Assembly (NCBI GenBank): GCA_020353235.1
Contig: CP070693.1
Span: forward strand, 836,844-900,843
DNA from: Dehalococcoidia bacterium
Lineage (GTDB): Bacteria > Chloroflexota > Dehalococcoidia > Dehalococcoidales > JAUYDJ01
Reading direction: 5' to 3'
Length of the DNA stretch: 64,000 nucleotides
Part shown: one piece after another, positions 2,868 to 57,235 of the stretch
Position numbering within the stretch: position 1 is the stretch's first letter
Layout of the letters: every line of letters starts with the position of its first letter
Translations under genes and position numbers: made by a program
The notes under the pieces: model-generated
What the model saw: only the letters and a program-made list of their open reading frames with translations
Databases searched by the model: none
Told to the model about the DNA's origin: nothing

Positions 2868-4631
2868 CTATTTACGCCCGGCAAGTATCTGCTTGACCTG
2901 CTCGATTGTCTGGCGGACATATTTCTCATCCAGCACACCGACGGCTGAAGGGGTCTCAAAGATACGCTTGGGCAGGTGGTAGTCATCTAGCGAGAAGCCC
3001 TCTCTGAACTTGAAGCGATATTTTTCACTGTGAATTTCTTCGCCAAGGCGATGAAGGTCTTCGGGAGCAATATCAAAGCCGGCTATCTGGAGCGCCCTGG
3101 AGACTAAGTCTGGTTTGTATATGTCCCGTGCAAAGAAACAGATAGCCAGGCTGGTCAAAATCTGACGCCAACGCTCCTCTTTGAGCAGGGTTTCGGCAAG
3201 CTCCCTGGGGGTGAGCTTTTCTTTGACCAGAACCTTCTGGTCAACGCTGTAGCCGGCATTATCGCAGTGATGGTGTCGGGTGGCGATAAAAGCGCCGATG
3301 TGTGCCGCTGGTCCGGTGTGATAACCAGGCATTTCGTTTTTACCGAAGGCGAGAGCAAAGTCCATGCCGCCATAGATAGAGGCGGCATGCACCACTCCCC
3401 GCGCCAGTGCCTGGTAGAAGTCATTGGGCTGTTCCACAATGAGCGGTATCGCCTTCAGGTAGCTGGTGTAATCCCCCCAGCTGAGATTGATGCCAGATGT
3501 TTCCTTTTCGGAGATGAGACCTTGCTCCTGGGCTTCGGTGGCCCAGGCCAGGATTACGCCGGTACTCATCGCATCCAGAGCCACCTCATCTACCTTTTCC
3601 AGCAGCTTGAGCAGCCCTCTGGCATCGGAGATGCCGAGCATTGGCCCCATGGCATAGAGGGGCTCGTAGTCATAGGCAATCATTGAGGTTTTATAGAAGA
3701 AGTCCTCATCTCCGTAGGGCTCTCTCAATGCCGCCAGATGGATGCAGGCTACCGGACAGTGAGCACAGGCAAGTCGCCGGCCCAAATAATGTTCGGCAAA
3801 GGTTTCCCCGGAAATCTGGCTGGCACCTTCAAATTGGGCATCCTTCAGATTCCGGGTAGGCAGGGCGCCTATCTTATTCAGCGGCAGGACATTCTCCGGC
3901 GTGCCTAGGTCATGATATTTCTTCATCGCCGACGTGTTGACGGCTGCCTGGTAAATCTCATCGTATATCTTCTGGTACGATTTGGGGTCGCTTACCGGCA
4001 GGGAGCCTTTACCGGAGATGACCAGCGCCTTCAGTTTTTTGCTGCCGAAAACAGCCCCCAAGCCGAGCCGGCCAAAGTGGCGGTAGGTCTCGGTGGCAAC
4101 GCCGGCGTAGGGAATGAGCTTCTCCCCGGCTCGGCCGATACGCATAATAGTCCTGAATCCAGCAGCGGTCTCTTTACCTCTGATAACCCGGCCGGCCGTA
4201 ATCACGCTTCTCATTCCCCACAGGGCAGACGCATCCCGGAAGTGAACTTGATTGTTATCAATGGTCAGATAAAGCGGAATTTCGCTGGCGCCTCTAATCA
4301 CGATGGCGCCATAGCCGGCCAGGCGGATGGCGATGGCACTTCGCCCCCCGGCGTGGCTCTCACCTAAGTTACCGGAGTGCGGTGATTTGAATAGAGTTAT
4401 CGTTTTGGAGGCAACTGGGAACAGGCCATTCAGGGGGCCAACGGCAAGTATAATTGGATTTTGGGCACCGAGGGCATCGCACCCGTTGGGGCATTCTTCA
4501 TGGAGAAGTTGTATGCCGACACCAACGCCACCGATGTACTTGTCAAAGAGGTTTGGTCTTTTCTCAACCCAGAATTGCTTCTTGGAGAGGTCAACATATA
4601 GGACGTTAGCTAGAGTATCATCTTTTAGCAT
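2868..4631 (-). CDS. aor: Aldehyde:ferredoxin oxidoreductase family (tungstopterin enzyme)
   Basis: 587 aa. The N-terminal AOR domain pattern is present (YVDLSKKQFWVEKRPNLFDKYIGGVGVGIQLL, SPHSGNLGESHAGG), as is an internal Cys cluster region (CAHCPVAC). It overlaps the ferredoxin gene by 14 nt. Confidence 0.9.
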   Translation of the reverse strand: MLKDDTLANVLYVDLSKKQFWVEKRPNLFDKYIGGVGVGIQLLHEECPNGCDALGAQNPIILAVGPLNGLFPVASKTITLFKSPHSGNLGESHAGGRSAIAIRLAGYGAIVIRGASEIPLYLTIDNNQVHFRDASALWGMRSVITAGRVIRGKETAAGFRTIMRIGRAGEKLIPYAGVATETYRHFGRLGLGAVFGSKKLKALVISGKGSLPVSDPKSYQKIYDEIYQAAVNTSAMKKYHDLGTPENVLPLNKIGALPTRNLKDAQFEGASQISGETFAEHYLGRRLACAHCPVACIHLAALREPYGDEDFFYKTSMIAYDYEPLYAMGPMLGISDARGLLKLLEKVDEVALDAMSTGVILAWATEAQEQGLISEKETSGINLSWGDYTSYLKAIPLIVEQPNDFYQALARGVVHAASIYGGMDFALAFGKNEMPGYHTGPAAHIGAFIATRHHHCDNAGYSVDQKVLVKEKLTPRELAETLLKEERWRQILTSLAICFFARDIYKPDLVSRALQIAGFDIAPEDLHRLGEEIHSEKYRFKFREGFSLDDYHLPKRIFETPSAVGVLDEKYVRQTIEQVKQILAGRK

Positions 4632-7843: not shown

Positions 7844-7860
7844 AGGGGAAGGGTTTGGCG

Positions 7861-9567
7861 ATGGCAGATAAGGTTGAAAAATTAGACAAGGTATCTTCCC
7901 GGATTCTTGATGATATGGAAAGCGATACCGATGTTTTCGGCAAAGCGCTCGCCAGAGCTGAGGAACTCAGCCGGTTGGCTCGCGAGGCAGCCGAGGGCTC
8001 AATAAAAGTTTCCCAGGAGGCAATCCGCCGTGCTGAGATATTGAGCCAGGTAGCCAAAGAGACGGCGGAAGAGGCGAAACAGCTGTCGCTGGAAGCAGTG
8101 CGCCGGGCGGAAGAGGTAATCAAGAGCACCCGGGCGACCGCTGAGAAGGCGACCAAGGCTTCCCAGCAAGCGGTGCAGCAGGCTGAGGAAGCTATCCAAT
8201 CGACCAAGTGGGCTACCGAGGCGTTGACTAAAGCCTTTGCTGAAGCGGCGCATAAAGCTGAGGAAACTGCCCAGTCGACCAAGCAGATGGCTGAGGAGTC
8301 GATAAAAGTATCCCAGGAAGCGATCGCCCGGACTGAGGCAATCGACCAATCGGCTAAGCAGATGGCTGAGGAGTCACTCAATATATCTCAGGAGACGATG
8401 CAGCGGGCTGACGAAGTAAGCCAGATGGCGCGCAAGATTGCTAATGAAGCCAAACGGGCATCAATCGAGGCGACCACCAGAGCGGAGAAAGCAGGTCGGG
8501 CGGCTGAGGAAACCGCCAAGTCGACAGAGCGGCTCTTTGCCAAAGCAATGACCCGGGCTGAGGAAATAAGCCGGATTGCGGAGGAGACAGCCGAGAGCTC
8601 GGTCAGGGCATCAGAGGAAGTAGTCAGCCGGGCTGACGGGATAGTCCAATCACTCCGCCAGGCTACTGCTGAGGCCAAGAAAGCCTCTGAGGAAGCCCTC
8701 AATAAGGCTGATGAGGTAGGTAAGTCGGCTTGGCAGACTATTGAGGAAGCCAAAAAGGCGGCTGAGGAAACCATCAGCAAGACTGATGAGACCAGCAAGC
8801 TGGCGGAGCAGACCGTTGCCGAATCGAAGAGGGTATCGGAGGAAGCGGTAAGTCGGGCTGACGAGATTAGCAAGTCGGCGAAAGAAGCCGTGGAGACATC
8901 AGCCAAGGCGTCGCAGGCAGCTATAACTCAGGCTGAGGGAGCCAATAAACTGGCTAAAGCGGCGGCTAAAGAAGCTGCCAAGCTATCACAGGAGGCGGCT
9001 GCGGAATCAAAGAAGGTCGCTGAGGCGGCGGTAAGCCGCTCTGAGGAAGCCGGCCGGTTGGCTCAGGAAACTGCTGCCGAGGCAAAAAAGGCGTCCCAGG
9101 AAGCCATAACCAGGTCTGAGGCAGCCGGTAAATCGGCAAAAGAAGCCGCTGAGGCATCAGCCAAGGCGTCTCAGGAGGCGATGCTGCGGGCGGAGAAGGC
9201 CAGCAAGTCAGCCAAATCGGCGGCGGAAGCATCGGCTAAATCAGCCAAGGAAGCCGCCGAGCAGGCAATAGCTGCTGCCCGAGAAGCGGCCGCAGCCTCA
9301 ATCAAGGCATTTGAGCAGGCTATCGGCGGGCCAGAAGCGGTAAGCCGGCTGACCGCAGTTGCTCAGGAGGCAGCCGGCAGACCCCAGGAAGCCGCCCCGG
9401 GTAAGGCGGCCAAAGCCAAGGAAAAGAAAGAAGAAGCAACGAAGGTAGGCCGGGATATTGAGAGCCGTTTGGAGTTTTTAGCCAGAATGTTTGCCGAAAA
9501 TAAGACCAAACGAGCCAGAAAAAGGGAAAGTGAGGAAGAGAAAGAGACTGAAGAAGAGGAAGAGTAA
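7861..9567 (+). CDS. Long Ala/Glu/Lys/Ser-rich alpha-helical repeat protein (25-residue repeats), function unknown
   Basis: The track ORF starts at a TTG (7855). The ATG at 7861 with the upstream RBS is more likely. There is no signal peptide and no TM segment. The tail is RLEFLARMF followed by basic then poly-acidic residues. Confidence 0.8.
   Translation: MADKVEKLDKVSSRILDDMESDTDVFGKALARAEELSRLAREAAEGSIKVSQEAIRRAEILSQVAKETAEEAKQLSLEAVRRAEEVIKSTRATAEKATKASQQAVQQAEEAIQSTKWATEALTKAFAEAAHKAEETAQSTKQMAEESIKVSQEAIARTEAIDQSAKQMAEESLNISQETMQRADEVSQMARKIANEAKRASIEATTRAEKAGRAAEETAKSTERLFAKAMTRAEEISRIAEETAESSVRASEEVVSRADGIVQSLRQATAEAKKASEEALNKADEVGKSAWQTIEEAKKAAEETISKTDETSKLAEQTVAESKRVSEEAVSRADEISKSAKEAVETSAKASQAAITQAEGANKLAKAAAKEAAKLSQEAAAESKKVAEAAVSRSEEAGRLAQETAAEAKKASQEAITRSEAAGKSAKEAAEASAKASQEAMLRAEKASKSAKSAAEASAKSAKEAAEQAIAAAREAAAASIKAFEQAIGGPEAVSRLTAVAQEAAGRPQEAAPGKAAKAKEKKEEATKVGRDIESRLEFLARMFAENKTKRARKRESEEEKETEEEEE
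7942..9204 (+). repeat. In-frame 75-bp (25-codon) degenerate tandem periodicity inside the repeat-protein gene
   Basis: The landmark triplet (R/K/Q)-(A/T/S)-(E/D) recurs at track residues 34, 59, 84, 109, 134, 159, 184, 209, 234, 259, 284, 309, 334 and 359. It then recurs at 395, 420 and 445. Counted by hand. Confidence 0.85.
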
Positions 9568-9594
9568 CACTGAATTACGGCAATAGGTAATTAG

Positions 9595-9641
9595 GGCACA
9601 AGTACCTTGACTTTTCACGGGGCAAACCATATACTTGTGCC
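9595..9641 (+). promoter_or_regulatory. Candidate promoter bracketed by a perfect 10-bp inverted repeat
   Basis: TTGACT (9607-9612), a 17-nt spacer and TATACT (9630-9635). The inverted repeat is GGCACAAGTA (9595-9604) and TACTTGTGCC (9632-9641). The right arm overlaps the -10. Confidence 0.4.
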
Positions 9642-9682
9642 GAAAATTCGCAAGATTTCATATTAAAGGGGGGTATTTTCTT

Positions 9683-10165
9683 ATGGTAGACCCGAAAGAG
9701 CAAGCTCAGAAGGTGGAGAAGAAAACCGAGGAGCCAGTAGTGGAACCAGCGGCTGAGGTTCAAGGAGAGGCCCTGGCTGAGGCTCAGGAACAGGCCGTGG
9801 AACCCTTGGCTGAGGTTCTGAAAAGGGTAGAACATGCCTATGCTGCTTATGTTGATGCGGAGAAAGAGGTGGCTAGGGTCTACAAGTCAAATGAGCAGCA
9901 GGTGGAGAAAGCCTACAAAGAGGCTGAGCAGCAGGCCAATATCGCTTGTGAGCAGGGCGTGGAAAGAGCCGCCCGAAATCGCGAGCGGGCGGAACAGCTG
10001 GCTGAGGAAGCGTATCACCGAGCCCGGGAACAGGCTAAGAAGAATTATGAAGAAAGTGTCAAGCGGAGCCTGGAAGCCCGTAGGGAAGCTATAGAACAGG
10101 CTTGGGTGGTTCGCACCGAATCTGTAGAACGGTCCTGGAAATTCTACTCCAAAGAGAAAAGATAA
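9683..10165 (+). CDS. Charged alpha-helical protein with hendecad-spaced aromatic residues, function unknown
   Basis: The likely start is the ATG at 9683 (MVDPKEQ), preceded by AAAGGGGGG. The track start at 9635 adds an implausible leader. The composition is Glu/Ala/Lys/Arg-rich, with no TM segment. Confidence 0.7.
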   Translation: MVDPKEQAQKVEKKTEEPVVEPAAEVQGEALAEAQEQAVEPLAEVLKRVEHAYAAYVDAEKEVARVYKSNEQQVEKAYKEAEQQANIACEQGVERAARNRERAEQLAEEAYHRAREQAKKNYEESVKRSLEARREAIEQAWVVRTESVERSWKFYSKEKR

Positions 10166-10193: not shown

Positions 10194-11369
10194 TTACAGT
10201 AGCGAGGGTATATCGCGGAAGGCGTCCTCGATTCCTCGGTGTTCGTACTCTATCCCTTCCCATCTCGTCTTATAGGAGGAGATATACCTAATAGCTCTGG
10301 TAAAGTACTCCATGACCTTACCGACGTTAGTAAGTTCAGATAGTATCAAAGTGACTTCTATGGCCCGTTTTTCCCGGGGATAATCACCACTCCTGATTAT
10401 GGCTTCTGTGGCCACACGTTTGAGGCAACCTCCGATTTCATTAAGCAGTGACATGTTCAGTTCATCGGGTGGTGCGGAGAGGAGATACAGAGCTCGCTTG
10501 GCATCTGAGGGACGGCACTTAAGCGACAGGTCACTTATGGCATCACTCATTGCCTGAACCCCCCGGCGGCTTTCAACCGGCTGCTTCCTGAAATCCGAGG
10601 TTCCACCAAAGGCAAGCTTGAGCATTGGTATCTGAGTCCTACCATGGCCAATTACCGTCCACCCCGACAGGGTCTGAATTATGTCTCCGGCGTCGATAAT
10701 CTTAGCACCGATGTATTTCGGCTTCTTCTCTTCACCGGCGCAGAGCAGGTTATAAAAGGGGCTGACCAACCGGGCATTAATCTTGGCCAGGTTATGCTGA
10801 AGCGAGGCATCTTTGGTAATATACCGCTGGTTGTCAATCAGAAAGACGGCATCAGCCACCAGGTAAGCCGATTTGAGGCAGGTGGCGGTGTTGTATATCG
10901 TTCTCTCCTCCACCTTCTCTTCATGCCTGAAGGGAAGGACAATAACGTTGTATATCGGCTTTTCTGGGTAGCGCTCTTTGAGGTTTTGGGTCAGTATCGA
11001 TATTGCTCCCGAACCGGTACCGCCGGCGGCGCTGGCAATGACTACGAAGGCATCGGTCTCGTGGAATCGCTTGGTGTTTTTAACCGCTTCGGAGACCTTA
11101 TCGCCATCTTCCCGGGCTATCTCAGCACCTAGTTCGTTTATTTTGCCGACACCGTGACCACCTGTCTTTTGAGCGCCGATAAGCACTCGATGTGCTTGGT
11201 CTGGCCTGATGAAGGATAGTCCGCTTAAATCAGCAATATCGGTGTTGACGGCAATAATGTTGCTGATTATATCAATGCCACGCTGACCGCGTGCTCTTCC
11301 GTTGAGACGAGCAAACTCATCGGCAATCCGACCACCACACTGTCCGCAACCAATAACTAGTAGCTTCAC
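10194..11369 (-). CDS. Tubulin/FtsZ-superfamily GTPase, CetZ/tubulin-like (paralog A)
   Basis: 391 aa with a GTG start. Motifs are MKLLVIGCGQCGGRIAD (T1 loop), GHGVGKINELGAEIARED, SAAGGTGSG (tubulin signature), FLIDNQRY, a T7-like IIDAGDIIQTL, SGDYPRE and LILSELTNV, ending in DIPSLL. Confidence 0.85.
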   Translation of the reverse strand: MKLLVIGCGQCGGRIADEFARLNGRARGQRGIDIISNIIAVNTDIADLSGLSFIRPDQAHRVLIGAQKTGGHGVGKINELGAEIAREDGDKVSEAVKNTKRFHETDAFVVIASAAGGTGSGAISILTQNLKERYPEKPIYNVIVLPFRHEEKVEERTIYNTATCLKSAYLVADAVFLIDNQRYITKDASLQHNLAKINARLVSPFYNLLCAGEEKKPKYIGAKIIDAGDIIQTLSGWTVIGHGRTQIPMLKLAFGGTSDFRKQPVESRRGVQAMSDAISDLSLKCRPSDAKRALYLLSAPPDELNMSLLNEIGGCLKRVATEAIIRSGDYPREKRAIEVTLILSELTNVGKVMEYFTRAIRYISSYKTRWEGIEYEHRGIEDAFRDIPSLL

Positions 11370-11402
11370 TTTTTACCTTGATACTAAAAACCAACTTTTT
11401 CC

Positions 11403-12578
11403 TTATAGCAATGTCGGGATGTCTTTGCCAACTTCTTCCAGGGTTCTAAGCCTGCCCGCGGTCTCTTCTTCTCTCCGTTTGAACTCGGGGATGAGAGTGG
11501 TTGATTTACTATAGTACTCCCTGACCTTCTCCACGTTGCTCAATCCAGACAGGATCAGGGTAACCTCGACATGGGTTCTCTCCCGTGGGTAGTCACCATT
11601 CCTGATGGTAGCTTCTGGAGCAATACCTCTCAGATAGTCGCCAAGTTCTTTAACCAGGTCCATATTCATTTCTTTATGCGGTGCCGCCAGGAGGTATAGT
11701 GCCCGGCTGGCATCCGAGCAATCGCAGGTAATGGAAAGCTCACTCATCGCTTCATCCATTGCCTGTATTCCCTTATGGATTTCGGTGCTCTTGGTCCTGA
11801 AGTCAGACTTGCGGGGCAGAGGTAGATTAAACAAGGGCACATCTGATTGACCGTGACCGATGGTGGTCCAACCGGTCAGTGTCTGATTGATATCGCCGGC
11901 ATCGACGGTTTTGGCACCAATGTATTTGGTTTTCTTCTCCTCACCGGCGCAGAGCAGGTCATAGAACGGCTCCACAATCATTTCATTAATCTTGGTGAGG
12001 TTATTTCTGAGGGAGAAGTCCTTTCTGATATACCGCTGGTTGTCAATCAGAAAGACGGCATCAGCCACCTGATTGACTGATTTAATGCAGAGCGCCGAGT
12101 TATAAATAGCTCTTTCTTCGGTTGACTCTTCATGCTCAAAGGGCAAGATAACCATGGCATATAGTGGTTTATCTACATAGCGTTCTTTGATGAATTTGGT
12201 TAAGACTGGCAGCGCCCCTGAGCCGGTGCCACCGCCCGAAGAGGCAATCAGTAAGAAGGCGTCTGATTCATAGAACCGCTTGGCTCCTCGGATGGCATCA
12301 ATAACTTTATCGCTATCATCTCTGGCTATCTCAGCGCCCAGCTCGTTTATTTTACCGACGCCATGGCCACCGGTCTTTCTGGTTCCAATCAGGATTCTAT
12401 GCCGGTAATCAGATTTTATGTTGGACAGCCCGCTCAGGTCAGCCGCATCGGTGTTTACGGCGAAGACACCGGGGGTTATTTCAATGCGGCGTTGGCTACG
12501 TGCCCTTTTATTTATCCGGGCGAATTGGTCGGCAATCCTGCCGCCACACTGTCCGAACCCAATCACCACTAATTTCAT
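11403..12578 (-). CDS. Tubulin/FtsZ-superfamily GTPase, CetZ/tubulin-like (paralog B)
   Basis: 391 aa, preceded by a strong RBS (GAGGTGGG). It is colinear with paralog A without gaps and matches at 70 of the first 100 residues by hand count. Motifs are GQCGG, SSGGGTGSG, FLIDNQRY, TVDAGDINQTL and NGDYPRE, ending in DIPTLL. Confidence 0.85.
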   Translation of the reverse strand: MKLVVIGFGQCGGRIADQFARINKRARSQRRIEITPGVFAVNTDAADLSGLSNIKSDYRHRILIGTRKTGGHGVGKINELGAEIARDDSDKVIDAIRGAKRFYESDAFLLIASSGGGTGSGALPVLTKFIKERYVDKPLYAMVILPFEHEESTEERAIYNSALCIKSVNQVADAVFLIDNQRYIRKDFSLRNNLTKINEMIVEPFYDLLCAGEEKKTKYIGAKTVDAGDINQTLTGWTTIGHGQSDVPLFNLPLPRKSDFRTKSTEIHKGIQAMDEAMSELSITCDCSDASRALYLLAAPHKEMNMDLVKELGDYLRGIAPEATIRNGDYPRERTHVEVTLILSGLSNVEKVREYYSKSTTLIPEFKRREEETAGRLRTLEEVGKDIPTLL

Positions 12579-12607: not shown

Positions 12608-12637
12608 ATTTTACTCACACAAAGGTACTGATGTCAA
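12608..12637 (-). promoter_or_regulatory. Candidate promoter for the tubulin-like gene pair
   Basis: On the minus strand: TTGACA (12637-12632), an 18-nt spacer and TAAAAT (12613-12608). It lies in the 91-nt gap downstream of gap. Confidence 0.45.
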
Positions 12638-18323: not shown

Positions 18324-19034
18324 ATGAAGGGACTGAAAGAATTGTTTCTGGTAGTGGGGATACTGGGGATAATATGCCTCGGCGGCTATATTGTTTACCA
18401 GATAGCCCATGCCGGCGGGGAGGTGGTGGGCTATGAGCGCGGCTATGTGGTGGGGGAGGGGGCGGGCTACAGCGTCGGTAAGCAGGACGGCTATCAGCAG
18501 GGCTATACGGTGGGCGAGACGGCTGGCTTTGATACTGGCTATGACGAAGGCAAAGACGTGGGCAAAGCCGAAGGCTATGACGAAGGCTATTCATCAGGGC
18601 AGACCGATGGCTACGACCAGGGCTATGAGATAGGCGTGGCTGATAGTCTGGGTCACGGCTATACTCTGAGAGACCCCACTTATAAAGAGGTGCTCAGCTT
18701 TCTCCGGCAGGATAAGACCGACGAAAATGAGTATATTGAGGACACCTACGGCGTCTATGTATGCAGTCACTTTGCCCGCGACGTGGGCAATAATGCCGAG
18801 GAGGCGGGATTGCGCGCCGCCTTTATCGAGTTGCGTTATCTGGATGGAGGACACGCCATAATTGCCTTTGATACCGTTGATGAGGGGCTGGTCTACTTTG
18901 ATCCGCGCACCGATGATAGGGCAAGACCAGTGGTGGGCAAGCGTTATTATGAGTGTGTTGAGCCCAGGCCCGGTCTCTCTTACGCGGAGCCTGATTTTGA
19001 CGACACCATAATGGACATTCTGGTTATCTGGTAA
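18324..19034 (+). CDS. Single-pass membrane protein with a long Gx3 (GYxxGYxxGxxx) repeat and a C-terminal putative Cys-His-Asp (transglutaminase/papain-like) domain
   Basis: 236 aa. The N-terminal TM segment is LFLVVGILGIICLGGYIVYQI. Glycines fall at every 4th residue from 32 to 104. The C-terminal region has C147 (YVCSHF), H177 (GGHAII) and D193 (YFDPRTD). Confidence 0.6.
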   Translation: MKGLKELFLVVGILGIICLGGYIVYQIAHAGGEVVGYERGYVVGEGAGYSVGKQDGYQQGYTVGETAGFDTGYDEGKDVGKAEGYDEGYSSGQTDGYDQGYEIGVADSLGHGYTLRDPTYKEVLSFLRQDKTDENEYIEDTYGVYVCSHFARDVGNNAEEAGLRAAFIELRYLDGGHAIIAFDTVDEGLVYFDPRTDDRARPVVGKRYYECVEPRPGLSYAEPDFDDTIMDILVIW

Positions 19035-49243: not shown

Positions 49244-50083
49244 ATGGCAGTAAAAATAGTCACCGACAGCAGTGCTGATTTAAGTCCTCAGCAAATTGAG
49301 GAGCTAGGGATTACTGTGGTGCCACTATATGTGCGTTTCGGGGATGAAGTATTACGTGACCAGATAGATATCACCGCCGATGAGTTTTACCAAAGGTTAC
49401 AGCATGACCCCATTCACCCCAGCACCACTCAGCCCACCCCACAGGACTTTGCCAATGCCTATCAGAAGGTAGCTCCGGAAGCGGATGGTATTGTTTCAGT
49501 CCACCTCTCGGCTAAGTTGAGCGGCACCTGTAATTCGGCAATTCAGGGCCAGAATATGACCGCCGGGAAGTGCCCGATTGAGGTGATTGACTCAGAAACA
49601 CTGACCATGGGTCTGGGCATTATATGTATTGCCGCGGCTAAAGTGGCTAATGCCGGGGGGAGCATGGAGAAGGTGGTGGATGAGGTAAAAAAGATGATTC
49701 CTCGGATACATCTGCTCTTTACTCTTGATACCCTCAAATACCTGGCTCTCGGCGGGCGTATCGGTAAGGCGAAAGCGCTACTGGGCTCGGTGTTGAATGT
49801 GAAACCGATACTGGCCATTAAAGACGGGGAGGTATTGCCGGGGGGTCAAGTCCGCAGCCGTTCTAAAAGTATAGACCGGTTGGTTGAGTTTGCCCAGGGT
49901 GCGAAAAATATTCAGGATTTAGCCGTCATATATAACACCACTCCCGATGAGGCACAGGCGCTGGTTGAGCGTGCAGCCTCCTTCTTTACTAAAGGGAAGA
50001 TTATGACGGTCAGATTGGGCCCGATGTTGGGGGTACATGCCGGTCCGAGGGCACTGGCGGTGGCCTATTCCGAAAAAGAATAA
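49244..50083 (+). CDS. DegV family fatty-acid-binding protein
   Basis: The start is trimmed to MAVKIVTDSSADL; the track ORF has a 23-aa leader. The pattern is typical of DegV, including SAKLSGT. Confidence 0.85.
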   Translation: MAVKIVTDSSADLSPQQIEELGITVVPLYVRFGDEVLRDQIDITADEFYQRLQHDPIHPSTTQPTPQDFANAYQKVAPEADGIVSVHLSAKLSGTCNSAIQGQNMTAGKCPIEVIDSETLTMGLGIICIAAAKVANAGGSMEKVVDEVKKMIPRIHLLFTLDTLKYLALGGRIGKAKALLGSVLNVKPILAIKDGEVLPGGQVRSRSKSIDRLVEFAQGAKNIQDLAVIYNTTPDEAQALVERAASFFTKGKIMTVRLGPMLGVHAGPRALAVAYSEKE

Positions 50084-50100
50084 GCTGAGATTATCTCAGC
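50084..50100. terminator. Perfect 7-bp hairpin between convergent genes (possible bidirectional terminator)
   Basis: GCTGAGA-TTA-TCTCAGC lies immediately after the DegV stop codon. The U tracts are weak on both strands. Confidence 0.35.
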
Positions 50101-50130
50101 CTACTTTAAGGTCTCCAGTAGCGGCGATAG

Positions 50131-50394
50131 CTACGACTGATAGCTTATAACTAACTCCGCCCCTTCGGCATCAAGGGTTACTCCCTTGAGATTCTGGGCC
50201 AGGTTGGCTTCCACGACCAGAACGGTGGTGCCCTCATGTTTCACCAGTCTATCACCGGGCATCTCTATGTCTATGCCTAAGCCTAGCTTGCCTTGGCCCC
50301 GGTCCATGAGCCGCAGGCGCCCCTGTGGCATATCTATGTGAGCATTAAGCAATTTTCTTAATGCCTGTTTGGCTGGCTTGGTAACATTTATCAT
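50131..50394 (-). CDS. Hypothetical small protein (possible IscA/HesB-like fold but lacking the Cys ligands)
   Basis: 87 aa. INVTKPAKQALRKLL...RLRLM...LGLGIDIEMPGDRLVKHEGTTVLVV loosely resembles the HesB/IscA layout. No conserved cysteines are present. Confidence 0.35.
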   Translation of the reverse strand: MINVTKPAKQALRKLLNAHIDMPQGRLRLMDRGQGKLGLGIDIEMPGDRLVKHEGTTVLVVEANLAQNLKGVTLDAEGAELVISYQS

Positions 50395-50610
50395 TTTGTC
50401 TTATCCGGCATTAAGGCTTACGCCTTTTCACCGTAGCTATTTTAACATGAAATACAACCACTGTGTATATTACTTTAGTCGCATTACTGACGATGCCAGA
50501 ACTAGTAACCGCTGCAATGGCTTGACTAATTATTCACCTACTTAAGTTTAACATAAATTGTCAGGTCAAGCAAATTGTTGGGTTGTCGGGTGGGTAGGGA
50601 GTCACAGTTG

Positions 50611-50898
50611 TTAAGTATCCTCAGTTGAGTCTTCTTCAATTGCCTCGGGCGCTTCTGCAGTTTCCTCAGCAGAGAGCGGCTCTTCTTTTACTTCAGCCTT
50701 AGCAAGCCTCACTTTGACTGCCGCTGGACGACCATCTCGCCCCTGGCCCTTCTCAAACTCTACTTCCTGCCCTTCCCTAAGGCTATTAAATTCCACTCCT
50801 TCAAGCTCGTTGCGATGGAAGAAGAGGTCTGTGCCCTCCGCTGTCTGGATGAAACCAAACCCTCGGTCTGTGAGTCGTCTGATTGTTCCCTTAGCCAT
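50611..50898 (-). CDS. Cold-shock domain protein with acidic C-terminal extension
   Basis: The start is trimmed to MAKGTIRRLTDRGFGFI (ATG at 50898, with AAGGAG upstream). RNP1-like GFGFI is present. The tail is EEPLSAEETAEAPEAIEEDSTEDT. Confidence 0.8.
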   Translation of the reverse strand: MAKGTIRRLTDRGFGFIQTAEGTDLFFHRNELEGVEFNSLREGQEVEFEKGQGRDGRPAAVKVRLAKAEVKEEPLSAEETAEAPEAIEEDSTEDT

Positions 50899-50920
50899 AT
50901 GATACTCCTTTTTGAACTTG

Positions 50921-50949
50921 AGTTTAGTCCTAGTTAACGGGTTTGTCAA
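50921..50949 (-). promoter_or_regulatory. Candidate promoter of the cold-shock-domain gene
   Basis: On the minus strand: TTGACA, a 17-nt spacer and TAAACT, about 25 nt upstream of the start codon. Confidence 0.4.
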
Positions 50950-51077
50950 TAAAACCCCCACGAACCCCATTGAAGGTGATATAGAGTAGTATAATTAAGG
51001 TGGGTTTAGATTTGTAAAAAGGGGGCTAATTAGCTATAAAACACTGCCTACTTTCTACACGCTCTAAAAAAGGACTA

Positions 51078-51707
51078 TTAACCCCTTGCTTTCCTGAATA
51101 GCACAGCCAGCAGAATGACGGGGACAATGAATGTAATAGTCCACAGACCAGCGATATTGACAAGTTCTGGCCAATATATTTGCAGGAGAATGGGAAATAC
51201 TAAAATCCCGTTCGCGATGAAGAGGTAACGAATCCAGCGTTGTAGCTTACCATCTGTGAAGGCGAAAGCTACAAATAATGTTGCTAGGCTCTGGAATCCG
51301 TATCCGAGAACATCAATTGCGAATAAGAAAGAGCCGTGTTCGAAAATTAGCACCGCAATTTCTTCTGTTTGACCGCGTATCATATTTGGTATTGCTATCC
51401 CAAGTTGGACGTAGTAAGCGATACATACCAGAACTGCGTATATTATGGCAAACGAGAGTCCAGTAAGGCTCCAGATTTTGCGTTCATCCCGAACGAATTG
51501 GTGTATGCTGACCATGAGAACAACAAACGACGGAGCCAGAAAAAGCGATGGAGTCATAAGCCATGTTAGTTCCCAATGCTTTGCTGGAGTAAAAAATAAC
51601 ATAGAGATAATCTGGGGAGTAATAAACCCTATGCTGAATAGCGCTGTTAGAATAGCCGCCCAGAACCCAAGTCGGGATACTGATTTTTTATTAATATTAG
51701 CCACCAA
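51078..51707 (-). CDS. Polytopic membrane protein (about 6 TM segments), function unknown
   Basis: 209 aa and strongly hydrophobic, with regularly spaced TM-length segments. GC is visibly lower and codons are more A/T-ending than in neighbouring genes. Confidence 0.6.
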   Translation of the reverse strand: MVANINKKSVSRLGFWAAILTALFSIGFITPQIISMLFFTPAKHWELTWLMTPSLFLAPSFVVLMVSIHQFVRDERKIWSLTGLSFAIIYAVLVCIAYYVQLGIAIPNMIRGQTEEIAVLIFEHGSFLFAIDVLGYGFQSLATLFVAFAFTDGKLQRWIRYLFIANGILVFPILLQIYWPELVNIAGLWTITFIVPVILLAVLFRKARG

Positions 51708-52055
51708 TCCTACCCTTTCTAGTTTAGCGTTGTATTAACAATCAAAAGGTTTGCTAGTGCCTTAATTAACCTAGACGGACTCAGCTATCCCCTTTCGAAC
51801 AGCAGGTAGTGGATAATATTTGTCCCATAACCTGTAGCCTGATAGGTATGTAGATGCCATCCCTCCATAATGTGCTTCTGTATCACCTCAGCAATTTTAT
51901 TGTGATGGTTTACTTGAACACACTTATATTCCTTCATCGTGTCTCTAACTCCTTTTTAGATAATAAACCCAGACTGATTATACCACCGGCTTTAAATATC
52001 AAATTAAGTAGAGGACTGCTAGTCCCTTGGTCTTCTACGGCTCTAAATGAAAAAG

Positions 52056-52127
<72 letters not shown>

Positions 52128-52255
52128 ACGAAGGTTTATTGTAGCTAATCATAGTCTCAGTGTCAAGGAATCTATGCTTGCGGTTCTCTATGGTAATAAG
52201 TCTGCCAATAGCCGCTGTTTGTCAGAAAACTTGGGTTGAACCGCAGTCGGTTGAT

Positions 52256-54232: not shown

Positions 54233-55312
54233 TTAGCCCCTTTTCAGGACATGGACAGCGGTAGCCTTGAAGGTGGCATAAAGCGGTTTGTCTTTGGTCA
54301 GGTCCATTTCCTGGGCGGACTGGGTGGTGACCACGGTGATTAAGGAGAAACCGCAGTCTATCTCAATCCGGGTGAGCGCCCCGACCGTGGTCAGCCGGGT
54401 TATTCGGCCCCGAAACGAGTTTCGGGCGCTGCTCGGCGCCGATGATGGGGACAGGGTAATATCTTCGGGGCGGATACAGGCGTAGACCCTGGCTCCAGCC
54501 GGGTAATCGGAGAGCGCTTCGATAGATTTGCCGTTAATATCTAGGCTAACCAAGCCGGCTTCGCTGGCAGCAACCACCCCGTCGATGATGTTTTCCATGC
54601 CGACAAACCGGGCAACCTCCTTGTTTTCCGGCGAGGTGAAGAGCTCGGTTGCCGCCCCGATCTGGTGGACTTCGCCGTTTATCAGCACACCCATCCGGTC
54701 AGCCAGCCGTTGCCCCTGGGCGATATCGTGGGTGGCCATTATTATGGTGGTGTTGTGCTGCTGGATAATATCGCTGACCAGCTCCTCAATTCTGGCGGTG
54801 GAGTTCGGGTCGAGGTTTGCTGTCGGCTCATCAAGCAACAGCAGCTCTGGTTCGGTGGCGATTGCCCGGGCGATGGCTACTCTCTGGGCTTCACCACCGG
54901 ACAGGGTGCGGGCGTTTCTATCCTTACCATTGGAGAGGCCGACCATGTCCAGAATACGGTGGACTCTCTGCTGAAGGCTGCTTCTGGCTAAGCCCCGCCA
55001 TTTTAGACCATAGGCGATATTGTCATACACGCTGGTGTTGAAGACCACCGGTTTCTGCAGAACGAAGGACATTCGGCGGCGTATCTTCAGCCTCAGCTTG
55101 TCGGAGCGACTAGCTTCCAGCCCGTCAAAATAGATACTGCCCGAGGCCGGCGTATCCAAGAGGTCCAGCAGACGCAGCAAAGTGGTCTTACCGGCACCAG
55201 TCGGGCCGATGAGGGCAAAGACCTCACCCCGTGCCACCTCCAGGTTGATGTCTTTCAGGATATCTCGGTCTTCATATCTCTGGCATAAAGCCACTGTTTT
55301 AACTAAAGACAT
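54233..55312 (-). CDS. tupC: ABC transporter ATP-binding protein with C-terminal TOBE/Mop-like domain (tungstate/molybdate type)
   Basis: 359 aa with Walker A GPTGAGKTT, signature LSGGEAQR and Walker B LLLLDEP. The C-terminal half is an oxyanion-binding-like beta domain. Confidence 0.75.
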   Translation of the reverse strand: MSLVKTVALCQRYEDRDILKDINLEVARGEVFALIGPTGAGKTTLLRLLDLLDTPASGSIYFDGLEASRSDKLRLKIRRRMSFVLQKPVVFNTSVYDNIAYGLKWRGLARSSLQQRVHRILDMVGLSNGKDRNARTLSGGEAQRVAIARAIATEPELLLLDEPTANLDPNSTARIEELVSDIIQQHNTTIIMATHDIAQGQRLADRMGVLINGEVHQIGAATELFTSPENKEVARFVGMENIIDGVVAASEAGLVSLDINGKSIEALSDYPAGARVYACIRPEDITLSPSSAPSSARNSFRGRITRLTTVGALTRIEIDCGFSLITVVTTQSAQEMDLTKDKPLYATFKATAVHVLKRG

Positions 55313-55314
55313 AT

Positions 55315-55998
55315 TTACCTCTGCTGAATACGGTTCAGGACGAGGTTAACGAGTAGGGCAATAGTGATAAGAATTATGCCCAGGGCGATGGACAGTTCCA
55401 GGTCGCCCTTAGATGTTTCCAGGGATATGGCAGTGGTGATGACCCGGGTGAAGCCCTTGATGTTGCCGCCGACCATAAGCGCCACGCCCACCTCGGATAT
55501 AGCGCGGCCAAAGCCCATAATAACCGCCGCCACAACGGCAAACCTTGCCTCTCGGAGAACAACGGTTGCCGTCTGGAGCTGGCTGGCACCGAGGGAACGA
55601 GCCGTATCGGGAATTGCCTTATCAATGCCGCTGAGGGCGGAGATGGTCAGGCCGAGCAGTATTGGGGTAATCAGTATCATTTGGCCAATTACCATAACCG
55701 TCGGCGTGAACAGCAGGTTCAGCCCGCCCATCGGCCCTGCCCGGGAGAAGAGGATAAAAACGAAAAGCCCGATGGCGACAGTAGGGATACTGAAGAAGGT
55801 CTGAATCAAATTGATTAAAGCCCGCTTGCCGGGGAAATGGCTGAAATAGATGAGGCTGGCCAGCGGCAGGCAAATCAGCGAAGCCAGCACGGTTGCCGCC
55901 ACTGAAATCTGGAGCGACCGGCCAGCTATCTCCATCACCTCCGGGTCAAGGGAGATGATGAGCTCGATGGCTTTAATCAGCCCGTGCCATAGTTCCAT
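55315..55998 (-). CDS. tupB: ABC transporter permease (tungstate/molybdate type)
   Basis: 227 aa with about 5-6 TM segments and an EAA-like loop region (ARSLGASQLQTATVVLREARF). Confidence 0.75.
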   Translation of the reverse strand: MELWHGLIKAIELIISLDPEVMEIAGRSLQISVAATVLASLICLPLASLIYFSHFPGKRALINLIQTFFSIPTVAIGLFVFILFSRAGPMGGLNLLFTPTVMVIGQMILITPILLGLTISALSGIDKAIPDTARSLGASQLQTATVVLREARFAVVAAVIMGFGRAISEVGVALMVGGNIKGFTRVITTAISLETSKGDLELSIALGIILITIALLVNLVLNRIQQR

Positions 55999-56009
55999 AC
56001 TATGCTAGC

Positions 56010-56141
56010 CTACTTCTTGGGGCGAATCTCATACCTGCCCTCGCAGGCAATCTGGTCACCGCAGTTAGGGCAGAACTTCCAGTCTGATCTTATCTCGTAA
56101 CCACACTTCTTGCACTTGACCACCATAGCGATAACTGGCAT
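56010..56141 (-). CDS. Candidate 43-aa zinc-ribbon micro-protein inside the transporter operon
   Basis: Not in the track. The sequence is MPVIAMVVKCKKCGYEIRSDWKFCPNCGDQIACEGRYEIRPKK, with an AGGAGGTG RBS 4 nt upstream of the ATG. It fills the tupA-tupB gap exactly. The track ORF 56065..56277 is in a different frame. Confidence 0.55.
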   Translation of the reverse strand: MPVIAMVVKCKKCGYEIRSDWKFCPNCGDQIACEGRYEIRPKK

Positions 56142-56170
56142 ATGGCACCTCCTTTAATTTTAGTAGTTTA

Positions 56171-57043
56171 TTATTTCGGCTCCGCCCCGGCACAGGGGGT
56201 GAAAAGCTGCCTTCCGTACTCTTCAACCCCGTAGCTGCCGATAAGCTCCTGTATCTGGGGCGAAGTGAGAAAAGCAATCAGATTATGAGCCATATCAACT
56301 TTCGTTTTGGGGTTCGCTGCCGGATTTACTGCAATTGCCGAGTAGACATTGAGCAGTATATCACCCTTATCTACTATCGGTACCAACTCCAGCTTGCCCT
56401 TATAGGCAAGGTAAGTGCCCATATCAGTCAGGGTATAGGCCTGTTTTTCACTGGCCATCATCAGTGTTGGCCCCATGCCGCTGCCGGCTTCAATATACCA
56501 GCTGCCCGCCTTTCTGACCGCTTCATAGGCATAACCGGCAGCCTGCCATATTTTCTTCTCTTTAGCGTGTGTTCCCGAATCATCACCCCGGGAAACAAAG
56601 CTCGCTTTAGCTGAATCCATTAGCCTCTGGAGAGCTTCCTCCGGGCTCAAACCCTTGATGCCGGCCGGGTCAGCCGGCGGGCCCAAGATGAGGAAATAGT
56701 TGTAGGCAAAGGGGACTCGCTCGACCCCGTAGCCCTCAGCGATGAATTCCTCCTCACGGGCTTTGGAATGCACGGTGATAACATCCACATCCCCTCGTAT
56801 CCCGTACTCCAGAGCCTTGCCGGTGCCGGCATACATAACATCCAGCTCAACGTTGTATTTTTGCTCAAACATAGGCTCAAGGTATCCCCAGAGACCGGTA
56901 TCGTAGAGGCTGGTGGTGGTCGCCACGCGCAATCTCGGCTGGGGCGGCATTGCTTCGGCTCCCGGGGCAGCGCAGCCTAAACTGCTCAGCAACAGGCTGG
57001 CAAGCACCAATATAACTAACGAATAAAGAAATGTCTTTTTCAA
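56171..57043 (-). CDS. tupA: Tungstate-type ABC substrate-binding lipoprotein (TupA-like)
   Basis: 290 aa with a TTG start. The lipoprotein signal is LLLSSLGC. RVATTTSLYDTGL matches the TTTS motif I associate with TupA-type binding proteins. Confidence 0.7.
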   Translation of the reverse strand: MKKTFLYSLVILVLASLLLSSLGCAAPGAEAMPPQPRLRVATTTSLYDTGLWGYLEPMFEQKYNVELDVMYAGTGKALEYGIRGDVDVITVHSKAREEEFIAEGYGVERVPFAYNYFLILGPPADPAGIKGLSPEEALQRLMDSAKASFVSRGDDSGTHAKEKKIWQAAGYAYEAVRKAGSWYIEAGSGMGPTLMMASEKQAYTLTDMGTYLAYKGKLELVPIVDKGDILLNVYSAIAVNPAANPKTKVDMAHNLIAFLTSPQIQELIGSYGVEEYGRQLFTPCAGAEPK

Positions 57044-57100: not shown

Positions 57101-57120
57101 CGGCATAATAAATGCACTGC

Positions 57121-57222
57121 CAGCTCTCCTTTCCAAACACGGGAGGCAATGCCGTTTCCAGTATTACCCTTTCGGCCAATCTCCATAGCGTTGCCTTCAG
57201 GAGAATTGGCTCGGAGAGGTAT
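57121..57222 (-). promoter_or_regulatory. Molybdenum/tungsten cofactor (Moco RNA motif) riboswitch aptamer
   Basis: The minus-strand RNA is CCUCUCCGAGCCAAUUCUCC...GGAGAUUGGCCGAAAGGGUAAUACUGGAAACGGCAUUGCCUCCCGUGUUUGGAAAGGAGAG. It has the conserved UCCGAGCC, GGCC, GCCUCCC and GGAAAGGAG blocks. P1 is closed by CUCUCC/GGAGAG. Confidence 0.75.
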
Positions 57223-57235
57223 TTAATTTAAACCC

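Follow-up and report, generated by a model that had tools for sequence, protein, structure and literature searches.

CetZ proteins constitute a branch of the tubulin/FtsZ superfamily that has been treated as specific to archaea (Brown and Duggin 2023, PMC9856176). The paralogs CetZ1 and CetZ2 of Haloferax volcanii (4b46 and 4b45) combine a tubulin GTPase domain (PF00091) with a CetZ_C domain (PF21011). Divergent GTPases of the same superfamily occur in bacteria as TubZ and PhuZ, and Prosthecobacter possesses the paralogs BtubA and BtubB, which were horizontally acquired and are restricted to one genus. In this study, we analyzed two adjacent genes, A and B, in a stretch of 64,000 nucleotides from a Dehalococcoidia bacterium (contig CP070693.1, positions 836,844 to 900,843 of the forward strand), hereafter called the window. 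Both proteins belong to the CetZ branch of the superfamily, and the host, a member of the Dehalococcoidia and not an archaeon, is a taxonomic rather than a molecular departure from the CetZ definition. The initial annotation of this DNA knew of no functional description of such a pair in bacteria. This stands for function, as no functional study of bacterial CetZ-like proteins was found in the literature searched, but CetZ-like sequences in Chloroflexota-Dehalococcoidia had been mentioned in one sentence (Santana-Molina et al. 2023, PMC9871819). The two genes and their motifs are located in the window as follows.

Gene A: 11403..12578, minus strand, CetZ-like paralog A, open reading frame (ORF) of 391 aa with ATG start.
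Gene B: 10194..11369, minus strand, CetZ-like paralog B, ORF of 391 aa with GTG start.
T1 loop VIG(F/C)GQCGGRIAD: starts at residue 5 in both A and B.
Tubulin signature (T4 loop): GGGTGSG at residues 115-121 of A, 12216..12236, minus strand; AGGTGSG of B at 11007-11027.
FLIDNQRY: residue 176 in both A and B.
DAGDI(N/I)QTL: residue 226 in both A and B.
T7-loop acidic pair D226-A-G-D229 of A: 11892..11903, minus strand; DAGD of B at 10683-10694.
GDYPRE: residue 328 in both A and B.
LILS(G/E)L(S/T)NV: residue 341 in both A and B.

The two genes are separated by 33 bp, and their products align over the full length with 238 of 391 identities (61%), no gaps and E 4e-174 in BLASTP, in agreement with the adjacent, colinear and gapless reading frames described earlier. 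An earlier hand count of 70 matches in the first 100 residues was exact; the following segments share 64/100 and 61/100 residues, and identity drops to 43/91 in the last. Every tubulin-superfamily motif quoted at that stage was located in both proteins.

The assignment to CetZ rather than to FtsZ, TubZ or tubulin, first proposed from motifs, was borne out by profiles, PDB matches and Foldseek. A and B match the Pfam Tubulin family PF00091 (E 1.8e-36 and 3.3e-34, respectively) and exceed the cut-off of 21.6 bits for CetZ_C PF21011 with 63.1 and 56.2 bits, covering positions 3-179 of the 180 in the profile, and thus show the two-domain architecture of CetZ1 and CetZ2. The best match of A among PDB sequences is Haloferax CetZ1 (4b46, E 8.7e-48, full length), followed by CetZ2 (4b45, E 1e-30) and Methanosaeta CetZ (3zid, E 1e-14); weaker matches were obtained with the best FtsZ (E 9e-11), tubulins (about 1e-6) and BtubB (E 2e-6). 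An AlphaFold2 model, built for A only with a 52-sequence alignment as input, reached a predicted local distance difference test score (pLDDT) of 93.1 and a predicted template modelling score (pTM) of 0.91. Foldseek ranks CetZ1 (4b46), CetZ2 (4b45) and Methanosaeta CetZ first to third for this model, with FtsZ behind, and the superposition on CetZ1 and CetZ2 gives a template modelling (TM) score of 0.91 with a root-mean-square deviation of 2.3-2.6 Å.

Other members of the superfamily were considered and rejected. The two proteins score 53.3 and 73.7 bits with the NCBIfam FtsZ equivalog TIGR00065, which aligns only to their N-terminal halves, against a cut-off of 295.2, and canonical FtsZ identity is therefore missed by more than 200 bits. 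With bacterial FtsZ they share the tubulin/FtsZ GTPase fold, the T7-dependent polymerisation logic and a similar conserved C-terminal peptide of the pattern D-[IV]-P-x-[FL]-L; unlike FtsZ genes, those of the window lie outside the division cluster, and the genomes keep a separate canonical FtsZ. The public name of the NCBI protein 100% identical to A, found on a 1.12 Mb contig of a Dehalococcoidia metagenome-assembled genome (MAG), is 'cell division protein FtsZ', a misleading label for these genes. The TubZ-type family Tubulin_2 (PF13809) gave 24.6 and 17.2 bits for the two proteins, under its cut-off of 27; among known plasmids only haloarchaeal CetZs, carried on megaplasmids, were found at 32-34% identity, phages gave no match, and TubZ/PhuZ identity was likewise discarded. 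Tubulin or BtubA/BtubB identity is contradicted by E values of only about 1e-6 and by the T7 Asp in both paralogs, so that there is no alpha/beta-type asymmetry.

Comparison with the archaeal proteins reveals both conservation and divergence. A and B share the T1, T4 and T7 residues with CetZ1 and CetZ2, as well as a C-terminus made up of a long helix and a short hydrophobic tail. They differ from archaeal CetZ in overall identity (only about 30-33%) and in the T1 loop, which reads GQCGG instead of GQAGG. The M-loop is about 10 residues shorter than in 4b46 according to the alignment, with the local sequences PLFNLPL in A and PMLKLAF in B, and lacks the LLSRL tip of CetZ1. A long M-loop with a hydrophobic LLSRL tip marks the CetZ1 subfamily only and not the whole CetZ family.

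Alignment to 4b46 places G119 of A opposite CetZ1 G108 and D229 opposite the catalytic E218, whose replacement in CetZ1 (E218A) gives a GTPase-blocked mutant (bioRxiv 10.1101/2024.04.08.588506). Residues G7, G9, G12, G116, G119 and S120 are invariant in a 16-sequence alignment; in the 52-sequence alignment G116 and G119 are invariant and G7, G9 and G12 are conserved at 90% or more. The GTP-binding motifs and the T7 acidic motif are present in all locus homologues, 81/81 of A-type and 33/33 of B-type (114/114 together), which confirms their supposed conservation. With a complete GTP site and the T7 acid kept in both, A and B look like active, polymerisation-competent GTPases. A heteropolymer was one of the arrangements initially entertained for the pair; in an obligate, alpha/beta-like form it was rejected, since many species possess A without B and the T7 loop of either paralog retains its catalytic Asp.

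Both proteins terminate in a short conserved peptide.

C-terminal peptide of A, D-I-P-T-L-L: residues 386-391, 11406..11423, minus strand; the protein ends KDIPTLL.
C-terminal peptide of B, D-I-P-S-L-L: residues 386-391, 10197..10214, minus strand; the protein ends RDIPSLL.

Of 120 close homologues, 117 terminate exactly in the motif D-[IL]-P-[ST]-L-L. Among the locus proteins the peptide lies at the end or at most one residue from it in nearly all 81 of A-type and in all 33 of B-type, and the latter without exception end in DIPSL[LI] (33/33). A tail of the D-I-P-S/T-L-L type is also present in most divergent members of the bacterial clade described below. It directly follows the long helix, without the long disordered linker found in FtsZ. 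Archaeal CetZ tails are related but poor in Pro, such as IDPLF, IESLL and LESLF of CetZ1, with the family-wide pattern [DE]x[PS]L[FL]. The Pro in the tails of A and B (DIPSLL in B) is shared with FtsZ, the conserved tail of which ends DVPSFLRK in the host-type canonical protein of a related genome (L054) and DIPAFLRK in E. coli. In CetZ1, the tail mutation of LESLF to AESGG abolished rod formation (bioRxiv 10.1101/2024.04.08.588506). Judged by its conservation, the DIPxLL peptide is the predicted functional tail of the entire family, and in the bacterial clade it is most like the tail of the host FtsZ. We hypothesize that it may bind FtsA or SepF.

A phylogenetic analysis was performed after an exhaustive homologue search of 1.84 billion representatives, which yielded 308 clusters at E <=1e-10. 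The neighbor-joining tree was constructed from 79 full-length representatives together with CetZ1, CetZ2 and E. coli FtsZ, the latter being the single outgroup sequence. A, B and every member named Dehalococcoidia fall into a 28-member bacterial clade with 99% bootstrap, separate from the archaeal CetZs. This clade sits among CetZ and CetZ-like lineages, and its placement against CetZ1/CetZ2 and a 'Nitrososphaerales' group has bootstrap values of 23-41%. The nearest archaeal groups, proteins of 'Nitrososphaerales' MAGs and euryarchaeal CetZs, are joined without support (sister 23%). One further member of the clade, P0138, is found in a bacterial context with MacB, a resistance-nodulation-division (RND) adaptor and two FtsH genes. 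The acquisition from archaea suggested in the initial annotation is plausible, and a single ancient transfer would be the parsimonious reading of neighbor-joining trees whose deep nodes are poorly supported.

The gene content of the window is bacterial. The equivalogs lysS, recO, recR, dnaX, type I gap, eno, pth, NAD-dependent ligA, rsmI, tsaB and tsaE pass their NCBIfam cut-offs, in keeping with the bacterial neighbors recognized beforehand (ligA, dnaX, recO/recR, pth, tsaB/tsaE and rsmI), and metG, ftsH, thiL, rsmA and ispE match bacterial models. One genome of each GTDB species was scanned with a 5-sequence alignment as query, and at least 516 stretches encoding a relative were recovered. 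The best 80 of these come from Dehalococcoidia, Dehalococcoidales or Dehalococcoidaceae, save two bins labelled Deltaproteobacteria with the same synteny. The window proteins were compared with these loci by tblastn, from which the gene order, the backbone and the counts of accessory genes were obtained. The shared backbone is ligA-pth-TIGR00725-eno-gap-[CetZ-like]-dnaX-recR, and the slot is also present in a closed 1.73 Mb chromosome. Unlike archaeal CetZ genes, these genes thus occupy a fixed chromosomal site, between gap and dnaX. Dozens of Dehalococcoidia genomes carry these genes at this housekeeping site, which bears out the earlier assumption that the contig is neither archaeal nor chimeric. 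A and B are chromosomal and vertically inherited in a Dehalococcoidales-type bacterium, neither a recent import nor an oddity.

Three layouts of the slot were distinguished. The first contains one CetZ-like gene, gap > A > dnaX. The second is the common form with two paralogs, gap > B > <cc176 <cc570 > A > dnaX, where cc176 and cc570 denote two coiled-coil genes. The third is that of the window, gap > A > B > <cc176 <cc570 dnaX, and was seen in none but its nearest relatives (L002-L004, probably also L062); the tandem adjacency of A and B is thus a lineage-specific rearrangement. Additional copies were observed besides these layouts. In L048 and L060, A is immediately preceded on its 5' side by a third CetZ-like paralog (8764-9933; 47% identity to A), which has no coiled-coil genes nearby and falls outside both the A and the B group of the paralog tree, with 100% support. 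The closed chromosome CP070645.1 has two CetZ-like loci (L073 and L080), and extra copies in unrelated contexts occur in L012 and L080.

The two coiled-coil genes lie between B and dnaX.

Gene cc176: 9683..10165, plus strand, 160 aa from Met17 of a mechanical ORF that begins at 9635; convergent with B.
Promoter-like site 5' of cc176: 9607-9635, predicted by consensus scan.
Gene cc570: 7855..9567, plus strand, long repetitive ORF rich in Ala, Glu, Lys and Ser; divergent from dnaX.

The product of cc176 is a small conserved alpha-helical or coiled-coil protein, the orthologues of which share the start MV(D/N)PKEQ, the core and the C-terminus in the alignment. The product of cc570 contains 24% Ala and 17% Glu and is built from repeats of about 25 residues (40% self-identity at lag 25). 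Its orthologues range from 488 to 911 aa with conserved termini, displaying the N-terminal motif FEKAVARAE.LSRAAREAAE and a C-terminal amphipathic motif, RDIESRLEFLARMFAE in the window and IE[AS]RL[ED][FS]LA[RK]MYE.KK across orthologues, which precedes an acidic tail. Neither protein has a match in Pfam, NCBIfam or PDB sequences. The homologue search with cc176 returned 5 matches only, and the distribution of both genes was counted by tblastn against the loci of relatives. One of the 5 matches, P0330 on a Logan contig of 1026 bp, is a 254-aa protein joining CetZ-like residues 1-116 in frame to most of a cc176-like protein. It is probably an assembly chimera rather than a real fusion, because the CetZ-like gene and cc176 are convergent in genomes.

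We scored 38 loci with a complete gap-dnaX interval for paralogs and coiled-coil genes; the loci are related and do not represent 38 independent events. Half of them (19) possess B together with cc176 and cc570, and the other 19 have neither a B-type copy nor the coiled-coil genes. Among the latter, 18 carry A alone and L048 carries A with its divergent third paralog. The association of B with cc176 and cc570 therefore has no exception (19/19 against 0/19 of the complete loci), and in the B-type group as a whole 33/33 members adjoin the coiled-coil genes. In the paralog tree, window B groups with the gap-side genes adjacent to the coiled-coil genes (n=33), and window A with all genes that are single-copy or on the dnaX side; support at the deep nodes is weak (30-36%). 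A represents the core copy; it is orthologous to the lone CetZ-like gene between gap and dnaX and is the only copy in about half of the related species. B is the accessory copy, an old duplicate found only along with cc176 and cc570. The tandem pair emphasized in the initial annotation is thus better described as a four-gene module of A, B, cc176 and cc570, in which A and B are adjacent only in the lineage of the window.

The module resembles BtubA/BtubB in that it contains adjacent bacterial paralogs whose family is characteristic of another domain of life, accompanied by a non-GTPase partner gene. It differs in belonging outside the tubulin branch, in the T7 acid kept by both paralogs and in the presence of A without B in many species. 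The partner of BtubA/BtubB, BtubC, is a tetratricopeptide repeat (TPR) protein, whereas the partners here are coiled-coil proteins. The tie of B to two coiled-coil genes also differs from archaeal CetZ, for which neither partner proteins nor counterparts of these genes in CetZ neighborhoods turned up in the literature searched; the tight linkage of B, cc176 and cc570 is on this account a testable lead for the whole CetZ family.

Further likeness to the archaeal CetZ1/CetZ2 systems lies in the hosts, which have several paralogs per genome and an S-layer and lack peptidoglycan; the S-layer of Dehalococcoidales cells is archaeal-like. Dehalococcoidales and SAR202 have lost the peptidoglycan (dcw) genes and kept mraZ-mraW-ftsA-ftsZ (PMC10608941). 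No ftsA or ftsZ is located within the 64-kb window. In related genomes a canonical 376-aa FtsZ adjoins FtsA (L054 and L042), and these separate genes, together with the order-level literature, establish that the CetZ-like proteins are additional to FtsZ and no replacement for it.

Published data on Dehalococcoides mccartyi are relevant here, as its genes look like the window module by their position next to gap. In strain 195, DET0590 (gap) lies beside DET0589, annotated as FtsZ, and DET0636 is a second such gene; the canonical DET0343 adjoins ftsA (DET0342), and the hypothetical genes DET0586-0588 next to DET0589 are co-regulated and tied to solvent stress (PMC5102406, PMC4340931). By annotation and position, DET0586-DET0590 appears to be the same locus as that of the window. 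In strain BTF08, the 'FtsZ/Tubulin GTPase' btf_0551, the 'FtsZ' btf_0595 and the nearby hypothetical protein btf_0548 are abundant in disc-shaped cells of pure cultures, and low or undetected in barrel-shaped cells of co-cultures (PMC8163811).

We consider it fairly probable that A and B form GTP-driven, envelope-associated filaments which shape or organize peptidoglycan-free cells. Each protein would polymerise head to tail with GTP into dynamic protofilaments, in which Asp229 of the following subunit would trigger hydrolysis. The filaments would lie at the cytoplasmic membrane of S-layer cells without peptidoglycan and may set or remodel cell shape and envelope organization, in the manner of CetZ1 and CetZ2 of Haloferax. 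The terminal peptide could serve as a docking site, either for a membrane adaptor or for a neighboring subunit as proposed for CetZ1; the similarity of the peptide to DVPSFL, the tail of the host FtsZ, makes FtsA the obvious adaptor candidate. A would provide the core polymer, with B, cc176 and cc570 as an optional regulatory or bundling layer, in which the 25-residue repeats of cc570 could act as a filament-associated spacer or cross-linker.

Several points weigh against such a shape-determining role. The M-loop, which in CetZ1 is long, hydrophobic and essential, is shortened here, and the model of A falls below pLDDT 50 at residues 251-253. The tail also resembles the family-wide CetZ pattern, so that its likeness to FtsZ may be ancestral and does not necessarily imply binding to FtsA. 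We found no experimental work on bacterial members, and polymerisation, localization and phenotype are extrapolated from archaeal CetZ. The loss of peptidoglycan is known at the level of the order, and 64 kb cannot show it for this organism. The link to D. mccartyi relies on annotation and locus-tag position only, and the proteomic support is circumstantial. Lastly, an A-type copy located 3' of ftsA-ftsZ in one genome (L054) fits a role in division at least as well as one in shape.

This copy bears directly on the first alternative, in which A and B are division proteins that co-assemble with or assist the FtsZ ring, in the manner of the FtsZ1/FtsZ2 division of labor in archaea or plastids, share FtsA through the tail and compensate for the lost peptidoglycan septum machinery. 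In Dehalococcoidales ARS1330 (L054, NZBQ01000018, 5811-11986), the extra A-type gene lies directly 3' of mraZ-rsmH-ftsA-ftsZ and 5' of nrdR; the usual gap-A-dnaX locus is present in the same genome (L059). The division cluster is also within about 10 kb of the CetZ-like locus in L042 and in L073, where the start of mraZ is found at the locus end, about 10 kb from A. The resemblance of D-I-P-S/T-L-L to D-V-P-S-F-L of the host FtsZ and to DIPAFL of E. coli points in the same direction, as does the public naming of these proteins as FtsZ, and the down-regulation in D. mccartyi coincides with barrel-shaped cells showing a ring-shaped septum (PMC8163811). However, the FtsZ equivalog is missed by a wide margin, sequence and fold are nearer to CetZ than to FtsZ, the usual site adjoins gap and dnaX rather than the division cluster, and canonical FtsZ is retained. 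Archaeal CetZ1, moreover, was reportedly found dispensable for division by Duggin et al. in 2015. We regard a role in division as possible but unlikely.

Less credible still is a function of the filaments as an intracellular scaffold for metabolic enzymes, reflecting the linkage to eno and gap. The order eno-gap-[CetZ-like] is conserved in nearly all loci, and metabolic scaffolding by CetZs has been speculated upon (Brown and Duggin 2023, PMC9856176). Against this, a strong promoter-like site is predicted between gap and A.

Promoter-like site 5' of A: 12608..12637, minus strand, TTGACA-18-TAAAAT, 11/12 consensus matches in the scan; predicted.

The sequence between this predicted promoter and the ATG of A reads GAGGTGGG, and the position of the site suggests that A and B are transcribed from a start of their own, separate from gap. 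Since ligA, pth, dnaX and recR make the backbone a generic housekeeping region, the linkage to gap and eno may reflect no more than a stable insertion site. The extra copies in unrelated contexts and the nature of the genes co-varying with B, which encode coiled-coil proteins and not enzymes, further make an enzyme scaffold improbable.

It is even harder to sustain that A and B segregate the DNA of a chromosomally resident mobile element in the manner of TubZ or PhuZ. This idea draws on the P0150/P0304 subclade within the bacterial clade, which consists of 418-aa proteins encoded in L082 (10001-12305) and L083 (10001-12296; ENA ERZ25072076). P0150 was found on 9 contigs among resolvases, IS66, IS605/TnpB and a group II intron reverse transcriptase, directly followed by a conserved ORF of 324-327 aa with no Pfam match, and looks like a CetZ-like gene with a partner on a mobile element. 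The locus of A and B shows the opposite picture: the Tubulin_2 scores and the plasmid and phage searches speak against it, no TubR-like DNA-binding gene is adjacent, no element boundaries were seen, and the chromosomal slot is fixed and syntenic across species. We thus consider a segregation function very improbable. The notion that faulty assembly or binning placed an archaeal fragment in a bacterial contig, which could appeal to the otherwise archaeal family and to the GC content at third codon positions of A and B (0.55-0.56, somewhat below the 0.57-0.70 of their neighbors), has practically no chance of being correct and is effectively refuted by synteny across independent genomes, given a source contig of 1.12 Mb, an overall GC of 0.50-0.51 that is unremarkable against the window mean of 0.54, the repetition of the junctions gap-A and B-cc176-cc570-dnaX in independent assemblies (L002-L004) and the same slot in dozens of species, one of them with a closed chromosome.

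A few other features of the window were recorded.

Moco/tungsten riboswitch: 57110-57228, minus strand, Rfam RF01055, 78.9 bits.
Three-gene ABC transporter: 54233-57043, minus strand, 3' of the riboswitch, with periplasmic binding protein, permease and ATPase with TOBE domains.
Aldehyde:ferredoxin oxidoreductase: 2868-4631, minus strand, tungsten enzyme (AFOR_N and AFOR_C), between recO and recR.
236-aa ORF: 18324-19034, plus strand, between ligA and a DUF1015 gene, with only weak repeat-like matches (FliH models, Yae1_N).
Low-GC segment: 50001-52200, GC down to 0.446 beside tRNA-Met (52055-52127, minus strand), with an ORF at 51078-51707 that has no Pfam match.

The riboswitch and the ABC transporter form a typical molybdate or tungstate uptake operon, to which the aldehyde:ferredoxin oxidoreductase may be related. 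The 236-aa ORF may encode another Glu-rich helical protein, and the low-GC segment could have arisen by a small insertion next to the tRNA gene.

The reading of A and B as envelope-associated filaments can be extended to the entire module. A, B, cc176 and cc570 might constitute a self-contained archaeal-type tubulin cytoskeleton that took over shape control after the loss of peptidoglycan and plugged into FtsA via an FtsZ-mimicking tail, with cc570 and cc176 as the first dedicated filament-associated partners of any CetZ. We put this forward only tentatively, as a doubtful proposal. If true, it would represent a bacterial counterpart of a tubulin-plus-MAP (microtubule-associated protein) system, and a cross-domain transfer of a cytoskeleton that has turned core to a whole order.

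That Dehalococcoidia carry CetZ-like genes had been noted in passing before (PMC9871819). New, as far as our searches show, are the paralog structure, the strict linkage of B to cc176 and cc570, the resemblance of the tail to that of FtsZ, the constant position between gap and dnaX and the wide occurrence within the order. In this large bacterial order, which is of environmental importance and has lost its peptidoglycan, a CetZ-type gene belongs to the conserved core and keeps its synteny. For the maintenance of disc shape and division in wall-less bacteria, A, B, cc176, cc570 and the putative docking peptide are now candidates; cultured relatives exist, and the D. mccartyi proteomics hint at a tie to cell-shape change.

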